A stretch of 8,688 nt of DNA from Escherichia coli (GTDB taxonomy: Bacteria > Pseudomonadota > Gammaproteobacteria > Enterobacterales > Enterobacteriaceae), in assembly GCF_003334335.1 (NCBI RefSeq), contig NZ_QOWQ01000068.1; one strand, 5' to 3'. This document shows, piece by piece, positions 769 through 1,778 of this stretch. Both the position numbers and the translations under genes were made by a program. A model generated the notes under the pieces. That model was not told the DNA's origin. It ran no database searches and saw only the letters and a list, made by a program, of their open reading frames with translations. Position 1 is the first letter of the stretch. Every line of letters starts with the position of its first letter.

Positions 769-1329
769 ATGAAGAAGATAATATTATTAGCCATGATTAT
801 TGGTTCTTTAACAGGTTGCGCTAGTGTGCCACCATTGAATTTTTCAACACCTAACGTGGGAGTTAGCCAGAAAAAAATAGATGCTGAAATTAAGTCATTA
901 ACGGTATCACTTGCTCGTCCAGATGAGCAGAAAGGGGATATCACTGCTGGTATGGAGGCTATAACTCCAATTTGGCGTGAATCTTTGCAGGAAGCACTCG
1001 ACCGAATGACTATTTTTCGTGATAGTTCACCAAATACGGTTAGCTTAAATGTTAAAGTGTTGGCTCTTGACGTTCCTGCTTTTGGTGTTTCAATGACAAC
1101 TAAAGCAATTGCAAGGTATGAAATAATCAACCGTGCGAATGGTGATATTATATATACGCAGGATATTGAGTCTACCGGTACTGTTCCAGCCAGTTACGCA
1201 TTCTACGGTATTGTTCGAGCACGCGAATCTGTTAATCGCGCGGTGCAAAACAACATAACGCAGTTCTTGCAAGCATTAGAAAGTGTTGATCTTTCTCGTC
1301 CAATGTTTCCTGTTAGGGTAGCTAAATGA
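769..1329 (+). CDS. Lipoprotein of unknown family (186 aa)
   Basis: N-terminal signal peptide MKKIILLAMIIGSLTG followed by Cys17 (lipobox LTGC); Ala at +2 rather than Asp suggests outer-membrane sorting. Good RBS. Stop TGA (1327-1329) overlaps the next gene's ATG (1326-1328). AT-rich codon usage. Confidence 0.8.
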   Translation: MKKIILLAMIIGSLTGCASVPPLNFSTPNVGVSQKKIDAEIKSLTVSLARPDEQKGDITAGMEAITPIWRESLQEALDRMTIFRDSSPNTVSLNVKVLALDVPAFGVSMTTKAIARYEIINRANGDIIYTQDIESTGTVPASYAFYGIVRARESVNRAVQNNITQFLQALESVDLSRPMFPVRVAK

Positions 1330-1778
1330 AGCGATTATTCGTAATTGCTCCACTCTTAGTGTTGGTTGGATGCGCACAAAATATATCGCCAAATAGTTAT
1401 TCTGTTGGCTCTGTGGGCATGGTTAATCGAACTATCGCTGGTACAGTTATTAGTGCTAGGGGGGTTGATATCAGTGGGACTTCCGCGTTAGGCGGGACTG
1501 CTGGGGCTGCCGTGGGGGCAACCGCTGGTTCTGCGCTTGGTGGGGGAGTTCGTTCTAATATCGTTGGTGCCGTTGGTGGTGCAGTCATTGGTGGTATTGC
1601 CGGGGCAGCAATCGAATCTTCAGCAACAAAACAAACAGGCATGGAATATGTTGTCGAAACTGAGAATGGGAATTTAATGACCATTGTTCAAGGCAAAGAT
1701 CCGTTATTTACTCAAGGAAGTAAGGTCCTTGTTTTATACGGAAACCCTTCTCGCATAATAACAGACCCGCGTCACTAA
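1326..1778 (+). CDS. SlyB/Pcp-family glycine-zipper outer-membrane lipoprotein (150 aa)
   Basis: Lipobox LVGC with Cys16. Central Gly/Ala-rich zipper (GGTAGAAVGATAGSALGGG...VGAVGGAVIGGIAGAAI). N- and C-terminal segments (AGTVISARGVDISG; KQTGMEYVVETENGNLMTIVQG...SKVLVL) resemble, from memory, E. coli SlyB (YGTIVNVRPVQIQG; KTQGVELEIRKDDGNTIMVVQK...QRVVLA). AGGG Shine-Dalgarno 7 nt upstream; ATGA overlap with the upstream gene. Confidence 0.85.
   Translation: MKRLFVIAPLLVLVGCAQNISPNSYSVGSVGMVNRTIAGTVISARGVDISGTSALGGTAGAAVGATAGSALGGGVRSNIVGAVGGAVIGGIAGAAIESSATKQTGMEYVVETENGNLMTIVQGKDPLFTQGSKVLVLYGNPSRIITDPRH

Follow-up and report, generated by a model that had tools for sequence, protein, structure and literature searches.

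Two overlapping genes at positions 769–1778 of an 8,688-nt stretch of Escherichia coli DNA (contig NZ_QOWQ01000068.1 of assembly GCF_003334335.1; hereafter the window) encode a pair of lipoproteins, referred to below as lipoprotein 1 and lipoprotein 2. The window belongs to a lambdoid prophage whose integration site in E. coli is argU/DLP12, and it covers the early-right, lysis, and accessory part of that prophage. With moderate confidence, we interpret the insert that carries the two genes as a self-contained mobile two-gene cassette that builds a SlyB-type outer-membrane (OM) lipoprotein module and travels as lysogenic-conversion cargo. The features on which this interpretation leans are the following:

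769–1329, plus strand: lipoprotein 1 gene, 186 amino acids (aa); signal peptide and lipobox LTGC, then a beta-alpha-beta-beta-beta-alpha domain
1297–1311, plus strand: C-terminal tail R-P-M-F-P of lipoprotein 1, the proposed contact with lipoprotein 2
1326–1329, plus strand: stop/start overlap ATGA, in which the TGA of gene 1 (1327–1329) overlaps the ATG of gene 2 (1326–1328)
1326–1778, plus strand: lipoprotein 2 gene, 150 aa; SlyB-family glycine-zipper lipoprotein
1488–1616, plus strand: glycine-zipper 2TM hairpin, aa 55–97 of lipoprotein 2; PF05433 (Rick_17kDa_Anti/Gly-zipper 2TM), Gly-zipper_Omp

The original prediction, made on the bare sequence, had taken both genes for lipoprotein genes (LTGC, LVGC) coupled in translation through the ATGA overlap at 1326–1329, and both points are borne out. 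The lipoboxes L14-T-G-C17 of lipoprotein 1 (nt 808–819) and L13-V-G-C16 of lipoprotein 2 (nt 1362–1373) can be read directly, each agrees with [LVI][ASTVI][GAS]C and follows a short leader that is basic and hydrophobic, and both are kept in 45 of 45 distinct homologous pairs; the overlap of stop and start codons is likewise plain in the sequence. The residue at position +2 is Ala in both proteins (CAS.., CAQ..), and because neither has the Asp that serves as an inner-membrane retention signal, the Lol sorting rule suggests that both are located in the OM.

Lipoprotein 2 and the SlyB Family

Lipoprotein 2 is a full-length homologue of SlyB and a clear member of the SlyB family. In a phmmer search of Protein Data Bank (PDB) chains, its residues 2–149 align with residues 3–155 of SlyB (7ojf_A, from 7ojf/7ojg; E 1.3e-14), and BLASTP against E. 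coli K-12 SlyB gives 33% identity (E 7e-13). Pfam returns PF05433 at aa 55–97 with an independent E-value (i-E) of 3e-4 and PF13488 with an i-E of 6e-3. The two proteins have the same length, align from end to end, and share the predicted order of their parts, namely a lipobox, an N-terminal strand segment, a two-helix glycine-zipper hairpin, and a C-terminal beta domain; the helices of lipoprotein 2 are predicted at mature residues 41–55 and 60–85, with a low predicted local distance difference test (pLDDT) score when modelled as a monomer.

Lipoprotein 2 nonetheless forms a clade apart from SlyB, and its gene is coupled in translation to that of a partner upstream, which slyB does not have. 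In K-12, slyB is monocistronic and adjoins slyA, whereas the lipoprotein 2 gene comes second in an overlapping pair; and slyB is a core gene regulated by PhoPQ, whereas lipoprotein 2 is found on phages and islands and is not known to be linked to PhoP, a difference that concerns a trait of the orthologue rather than of the family. The nanodomain mechanism of SlyB is reportedly that of Janssens et al. 2024, Nature 626:617. As for what SlyB-type proteins do, two reports describe SlyB as forming, under OM stress, disk-like oligomers (SlyB11 in 7ojg) around outer-membrane proteins (OMPs) and patches of phospholipid and lipopolysaccharide (LPS), and YfgH as a second E. coli paralogue of SlyB with a distinct lipid preference (10.64898/2025.12.22.696046; 10.1101/2025.03.19.644130).

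Lipoprotein 1, of a Familiar Fold but an Unnamed Family

Lipoprotein 1 belongs to a widespread family for which there is no Pfam or NCBIfam model; grouped at 90% identity, this family comprises 512 clusters, and at 50% identity it has 460 representatives (E ≤0.001). Sequence and profile searches of Pfam, NCBIfam, PADLOC, and the PDB found nothing past the signal peptide of lipoprotein 1; matches to IglE, DotD, LptM, and CsgG were rejected as weak and confined to the signal peptide and lipobox. A further search with 84 diverse relatives against Pfam returned no family at a cut-off of E 0.001.

The AlphaFold2 (AF2) model of lipoprotein 1 (pLDDT 95) has the lipoprotein fold of LptE, PqiC, PelC, and the TraT core. 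The matches listed for this model, with their values, are XCC0632 (DUF330, PqiC/YmbA family; 13.1), PelC (10.3), HpaA/HP0492 (about 10), LptE (9.9), PqiC (9.4), CsgG (9.1), TraT (7.0), and LpoB (6.8), all at a sequence identity of 7–15%, and its neighbors in the AlphaFold database (AFDB) beyond its own family carry the labels 'ABC-type transport auxiliary lipoprotein', DUF4410, LptE or DUF4136. The original prediction had regarded the pair as a candidate for an undescribed system; it is not a novelty without a place among known proteins, in view of the SlyB membership of gene 2 and of this common LptE-like lipoprotein fold in gene 1.

Proteins of the family go by the database names 'UDP-N-acetylglucosamine acyltransferase', 'lipoprotein' and, in recent PGAP annotation, 'YajG family lipoprotein'. 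We rejected the first of these, which many entries carry, since a confident model of an alpha/beta lipoprotein domain together with a lipobox implies that the acyltransferase name is a propagated error. Nor do we accept the YajG label. YajG (PF03923) is an OM lipoprotein of similar size, and BLASTP aligns it with lipoprotein 1 in a collinear manner at 26% identity over 166 aa, a weak similarity with a pairwise E of 2e-4; however, the PF03923 model matches neither lipoprotein 1, even at E up to 10, nor the 84 relatives, hhalign of the lipoprotein 1 family profile with YajG covers the first 51 columns only (probability 85%), and YajG adjoins ampG and has no SlyB-like partner. These results fit a distant relationship at the level of the superfold, rather than a membership that could be demonstrated.

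The same caution applies to PqiC/YmbA (DUF330, 'ABC-type transport auxiliary lipoprotein'; XCC0632 2iqi, PqiC 8q2c), LptE, and PelC, with which lipoprotein 1 has a two-layer alpha/beta lipoprotein fold in common, although at 9–12% identity and with no pqiAB, lptD, or pelB near the pair. No relative matches PF03886 (PqiC/DUF330) or PF04390 (LptE) at E ≤0.001, and 1 of the 84 shows LptE at E 0.03. In a separate observation, waaA (Glycos_transf_N), lpxK, and an SDR gene are followed directly on their 3' side by the gene for an unpaired and distant relative of lipoprotein 1, of 35% identity (L081, 1–3585), a neighborhood that may hint at an LPS link and may be the origin of the 'UDP-GlcNAc acyltransferase' misnomer.

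The Two Genes as a Conserved Unit

As far as comparative data can show, the two genes are one unit. We scanned one genome per species (GTDB r220) and the viral sequences of IMG/VR with conserved motifs taken from an eight-sequence alignment, so that both surveys cover relatives with the motifs PPLNFS.P or ARPDE.KG, that is, those of about 44% identity or more. The genome survey yielded 31 loci, in Klebsiella, Edaphovirga, Photorhabdus, Xanthomonas, Stenotrophomonas, Lysobacter, Luteimonas, Pseudomonas, Bordetella, Acidovorax, Comamonas, Massilia, and Micavibrio. A SlyB-like gene immediately follows the lipoprotein 1 gene in 26 of them, across Gamma-, Beta-, and Alphaproteobacteria (in Luteimonas it is present but was missed by the gene caller), the loci without a partner being two in Photorhabdus, two in Pseudomonas, and one in Massilia; in IMG/VR, the pair is found in 32 of 37 viral loci. 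Conserved co-occurrence, which had been named beforehand as the check for a two-component system, is thus what the surveys returned. The two genes also overlap or abut in Klebsiella, Bordetella, Luteimonas, and Stenotrophomonas. While the GC content of the pair ranges from 0.43 to 0.66 across hosts, protein identities stay at 55–84% for lipoprotein 1 and 46–76% for lipoprotein 2, which implies strong purifying selection on both.

The pairing is mirrored in the C-terminus of lipoprotein 1. A tail of the form [KR]-P-[ML]-F-[PS] is present in 39 of 39 distinct paired homologues and in 0 of 9 unpaired ones, which makes the [KR]PMFP tail a candidate docking motif for lipoprotein 2. The tail-less unpaired set includes the Photorhabdus proteins and two prophage copies that are 54–60% identical to the query, as close to it as the paired Stenotrophomonas proteins are, and because these unpaired relatives lack the motif, the correlation does not appear to be one of pure ancestry.

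Some unpaired homologues stand in settings that we record in their own right. In Photorhabdus (L028, 7513–8049; L030, 6962–7321), the unpaired gene lies ~0.4–1 kb from an apparent CRISPR array, recognized by open reading frame (ORF) translations that repeat 'VHCRTGSLE' at even spacing. In a lambdoid-like enterobacterial prophage (L071, 8001–8851), an unpaired homologue of 60% identity with no PMFP tail lies near the Q antiterminator, and a 94-aa secreted protein (phrog_21025, unknown function) occupies the place of the SlyB-like gene.

Distribution across Chromosomes and Phages

The pair recurs in unrelated prophages and occupies four positions in phage genomes. The first is between ren and ninB in the E. 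coli lambdoid prophage. The second lies between the tape measure gene and gpM in a lambda-like tail module (L058–L060, 73% identity), where the pair has a GC content of 0.44 against 0.54 in the flanks; the third, in Xanthomonadales prophage contigs (L062, L064–L066), is directly 3' of a CI-like S24 repressor gene, whose strand the pair shares; and the fourth is between the large terminase (terL) and portal genes (L063). The GC content of the pair is below that of the phage flanks in three of these four backbones (the window, L059, and L062/L065) and equal to it in the terL–portal contig. Judging from these contexts, different temperate phages have captured the pair at least four times. The stretch just 3' of a CI repressor gene is a typical place for accessory genes expressed in lysogens, of which lambda cI-rexAB is the textbook example, and the CI-adjacent position therefore suggests expression from the repressed prophage in those Xanthomonadales phages.

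The pair is not phage-specific, however, and the phage context that had been proposed for it stands for the prophage copies without extending to all others, some of which occupy ordinary chromosomal loci. In the Stenotrophomonas maltophilia complex, the flanks of the pair are conserved on both sides from one species representative to the next: a gene for a TonB-dependent receptor precedes the pair on its strand at a distance of 190 nt, fragmented MacB/FtsX-like genes come 3' of it, and there are no phage genes around (L077–L079, 5670–9034). In Klebsiella oxytoca, the context is equally foreign to prophages, an SRAP/umuDC block lying on one side of the pair and cold-shock and lac genes on the other. 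The surroundings in Luteimonas and Bordetella look like variable islands, with transposase, toxin-antitoxin, type VI secretion system (T6SS) effector, and phage-remnant genes.

The Insert and Its Boundaries in E. coli

In E. coli, the insert and the signals near it are delimited as follows:

168–1780: insert; DNA exclusive to the 280 pair-carrying E. coli genomes, comprising the 3' part of ren, an AT-rich spacer, and both lipoprotein genes
281–768: spacer between ren and gene 1, GC 0.32; E. coli-specific, that is, not common to Klebsiella or other copies of the pair
712–739, plus strand: promoter-like site (candidate moron promoter), sigma-70, GTGATA-16-TATAAT, 10/12, 30 nt 5' of the gene 1 start
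1911–1928, plus strand: weak terminator-like hairpin and T-run 5' of ybcN, outside the insert, in backbone DNA common to other lambdoid prophages

We compared positions 1–2450 of the window with 5426 complete E. coli genomes, 3819 of which match some part of it, and 280 of which (~5%), among them that of enteroaggregative E. coli (EAEC) 042, carry the pair. All copies in these 280 genomes are chromosomal and at least 99% identical, and 279 are full length. On the right, pair-less lambdoid prophages, including K-12 DLP12, match again from 1781–1786, that is, 3–8 nt past the stop codon of gene 2, and this right-hand match runs over 1781/1786–2450 only; on the left, the homology of pair-less prophages stops near 160–167, inside ren. 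The left junction is mosaic within ren: window 1–167 is 97–99% identical to DNA annotated 'bet' or 'RecT' in other E. coli genomes, and some pair-carrying genomes match the window only from 159 onward. Three carrier genomes sampled at different map positions have the same backbone around the pair, which, together with the near identity of the copies, indicates that the pair is one insert in one prophage lineage within E. coli. An identical stretch occurs in strain OkiPb01716. The 1010 nt of the pair are also found, with 100% identity and at the corresponding place, in PhiR30_1, a cultivable phage of 47.4 kb whose host is E. coli C.

The claim that the pair forms an insert of foreign composition, lying 5' of the nin region, is upheld by these sharp junctions and by the GC content at third codon positions (GC3), which is 0.30 in gene 1 and 0.34 in gene 2 against 0.41–0.61 in the flanking nin-region genes. 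The description of a visibly AT-rich island holds mainly for the spacer and for gene 1 (total GC 0.405); the total GC of gene 2, 0.472, approaches that of ybcN–quuD (0.487) owing to Gly and Ala codons, although this gene is AT-rich at its third positions. In being present or absent between otherwise homologous phage genomes, with a sharp junction and a deviant composition, the insert resembles a moron in the sense of Hendrix and Juhala.

The nearest copy outside E. coli is that of K. oxytoca, at 71% DNA identity; the similarity begins at 769, exactly the first start codon, and extends to 1759, no more than 20 nt short of the second stop. The mobile unit thus delimited is the two genes alone, without the spacer. 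Where the pair lies, its transcription in the lytic cycle would be from pR. The stretch from 1778 to 1910 showed no terminator-like site.

The spacer itself holds two small ORFs. One, on the minus strand at 321–527, encodes 68 aa with two transmembrane or hydrophobic segments and is called 'hypothetical' in PhiR30_1; each of the 280 E. coli genomes with the pair has it as well, and searches of PHROG and NCBIfam returned no family for it. It may encode a small membrane toxin or represent a third cargo gene. The other, on the plus strand at 624–764, matched no family.

A Proposed Role in the Lysogen Envelope

By homology with SlyB, lipoprotein 2 would be held by its lipid anchor in the OM's inner leaflet, with its glycine-zipper hairpin inserted into the membrane, and may oligomerize laterally into rings around proteins or patches of lipid and LPS, as SlyB does under stress. 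Lipoprotein 1 would face the periplasm and be made in fixed proportion to it through translational coupling. We envisage that it may be a dedicated partner of lipoprotein 2, docked by the [KR]PMFP tail and serving as a cap, an adaptor, or a client-selecting subunit. Taken together, the two chains would resemble TraT, with its LptE-like core, its two-helix membrane hairpin, and its lipid-plugged decamer. Since Stenotrophomonas keeps the pair at a conserved place in its chromosome, the ancestral role of the pair was probably one in general envelope physiology or maintenance, and temperate phages would then have taken it up repeatedly as lysogenic-conversion cargo. The most likely benefit to a lysogen would be a tougher or remodelled OM, with tolerance of detergents, bile, chelators, cationic peptides, or serum.

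Several points weigh against this interpretation. E. coli already possesses two genes of the SlyB kind, slyB and yfgH. Those relatives of lipoprotein 1 that are more distant (≤41% identity) stand alone, which implies some activity independent of a partner, and the correlation of the tail motif with pairing is confounded by phylogeny, since most of the paired homologues belong to a single clade. When the two mature chains were modelled in AF2 as a fusion with a (G4S)6 linker (105 alignment rows, 20 paired and 85 unpaired), the predicted template modelling score (pTM) was 0.55 and no confident interface resulted; both globular parts are confident in the model, the hairpin has a pLDDT near 50, and a single beta-bridge is predicted at F180 of the PMFP tail, not assignable to a partner, although modelling of this monomer type is a weak test for a ring of about 11 subunits. 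The promoter-like site at 712–739 is a lead only, since the region has 6 such sites when 5.7 are expected in shuffled sequence. Finally, ring formation, physical contact between the two lipoproteins, expression in lysogens, and the phenotype are all things that we infer, the phage-related function wholly so.

Alternative Explanations

The original prediction had named superinfection exclusion as a candidate function. On this view, the pair would sit in the OM of the lysogen and block the adsorption or DNA entry of phages, either through SlyB-like rings around receptor porins and TonB-dependent receptors or through periplasmic plugging of the kind that Llp and Cor exert on FhuA; it could equally block conjugative mating as TraT does. 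We regard exclusion as one possibility that is not the leading one, and on balance unlikely. That temperate phages took up the pair independently, at four positions in their genomes, would suit such a role, and so would the same-strand position next to CI in several Xanthomonadales prophages, which is classic for exclusion genes of lysogens (lambda rexAB), the place of the Stenotrophomonas pair after a TonB-dependent receptor gene, and the presence of both structural elements in TraT; the known precedents are also small OM lipoproteins, such as Llp (10.64898/2026.03.26.714494). The tie to known exclusion or defense proteins fails, however, since neither lipoprotein matches a defense family in PADLOC-DB v2, the PHROGs of the pair (12521 for lipoprotein 1, and 13877) are both of 'unknown function', and neither protein has sequence similarity to Llp, Cor, Bor, or TraT. 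Bor (lambda/DLP12), Cor (phi80, N15), and Llp (T5) are, like the pair, small OM lipoproteins encoded by accessory genes of phages, and bor even resides in the same prophage, but they are single genes with no sequence or family relation to the pair, which consists of two genes whose chromosomal homologues have a known role in envelope stress. Exclusion is likewise at odds with conserved chromosomal copies in non-prophage contexts, with SlyB rings as described, which surround OMPs laterally and leave their surface loops uncovered, and with the BFVD viral structure library, where no meaningful match was found (template modelling score ≤0.34).

A more specific form of this idea, to which we give a rather lower probability, would make of the pair a split TraT: a SlyB-like subunit and an LptE-fold cap, docked through [KR]PMFP, would form a hetero-oligomeric OM ring enclosing specific receptors, and this would be a hitherto unrecognized, broadly distributed device for superinfection or conjugation exclusion, captured again and again by temperate phages of several proteobacterial orders and in some cases brought into the CI repressor operon. 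According to structures published in 2025, the monomer of TraT (the surface-exclusion and serum-resistance lipoprotein of IncF plasmids; PDB 9e2v) consists of an LptE-like core and two transmembrane helices, and ten such monomers form a complex that lipid plugs at the membrane end; its gene is apparently a chromosomal one co-opted by plasmids. An LptE-like core and two-helix hairpin elements are what the pair has in common with it. In the pair, however, the two are on separate polypeptides rather than on a single chain, the beta-hairpin ring element of TraT was not identified, and there is no significant sequence similarity, the match to the TraT family hidden Markov model (HMM; PF05818) having an i-E of 1.2. 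The resemblance is thus best described as an analogy, not as membership or shown homology.

A third explanation, distinctly improbable in our view, places the activity in lipoprotein 1, which would bind LPS or phospholipid in the manner of LptE or PqiC with the SlyB-like protein as a mere platform, and would alter the organization or asymmetry of LPS and lipids rather than encapsulate proteins. The one distant family member found directly after waaA–lpxK points this way, as do the recurrence of the core fold in binders of anionic oligosaccharides, noted in the TraT paper, and the co-purification of both YajG and SlyB with LptDE in E. coli (PMC12065857). These hints are offset by a similarity to lipid-handling proteins that is at fold level only, as the 7–15% identity indicates, by the lack of pqiAB/MCE, lpt, or pel genes adjoining the pair in the loci examined, and by the waaA–lpxK neighborhood being a single case that involves an unpaired relative of 35% identity.

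Most doubtful of all is that the two lipoproteins are independent fellow travellers, or the cassette neutral hitch-hiking cargo with no role for phage or lysogen: the fusion model without a confident interface, the homologues of lipoprotein 1 that occur alone, and the E. coli copies, all nearly identical in one backbone and compatible with recent clonal spread, would allow it, but it sits poorly with a gene order and start/stop overlap kept from 43% to 66% GC in three proteobacterial classes, with protein identities across hosts that indicate strong purifying selection, with a tail motif that tracks the partner perfectly, and with four separate phage insertion sites and 279 of 280 full-length copies in E. 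coli.

Surroundings in the Prophage

The annotation of OkiPb01716 gives the wider gene order, which runs from intD through cI-like, cro-like, ydaT, O, P, and ren genes to the pair, and on its 3' side through a small ORF, ybcN (ninB), ninE, ybcO, rusA, ylcG, quuD, and a porin gene (minus strand) to essD, rrrD, rzpD, bor (minus strand), and ybcV, with the terminase and portal genes further on. The small ORF is 'hypothetical', encodes 33 aa on the plus strand (1869–1971) in a ylcH-like position just 5' of ybcN, belongs to backbone DNA common with K-12 DLP12, and matched no family. An Rfam scan of the whole window gave no match.

The porin gene, an intact NmpC/OmpD/OmpC-like one on the minus strand at 4031–5173, between quuD and essD, is a second envelope moron and is preceded by a spacer of 27–32% GC (5100–5550). 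Its nmpC counterpart in K-12 DLP12 is disrupted by IS5. The prophage thus encodes several OM proteins, counting this porin, bor (6903–7196, minus strand), and rzoD, embedded in rzpD (6630–6812). We considered a functional link between the pair and the porin gene 2.3 kb downstream and dropped it, as the other contexts of the pair that were examined are without a porin. A spanin or lysis role was also rejected, given that the prophage has its own rzpD/rzoD and that the pair lies in the early region here and in the tail, head, or immunity regions of other phages.

Significance

In kind, much of this system is already known, lipoprotein 2 being a new representative of the SlyB family and lipoprotein 1 having a known kind of fold, although its family is unnamed. 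The conserved, translationally coupled pairing, the tail motif, and the recurrent capture by phages appear to be undescribed; literature searches, including for SlyB with prophage or exclusion, found no description of the pair. SlyB-type glycine-zipper lipoproteins have recently been recognized as organizers of stress-induced nanodomains in the OM, and their paralogues YfgH, OsmB, and YiaD are now being explored. To these, the present analysis would add a distinct SlyB clade with an obligate-looking partner lipoprotein, drawn from an unnamed family misannotated as an acyltransferase, which temperate phages of E. coli, other enterobacteria, and Xanthomonadales keep acquiring at different genome positions. 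If the pair merely duplicates the function of SlyB, it would be an ordinary set of lysogenic-conversion genes. If instead the two lipoproteins form a complex, it would be a SlyB-type system that has its adaptor built in, the first of its kind, and a structural link between SlyB and TraT, and, with carriers that make up ~5% of complete E. coli genomes, EAEC 042 among them, and with the cultivable phage PhiR30_1, it would offer a tractable case in which to learn what a prophage may gain from remodelling the OM of its host.

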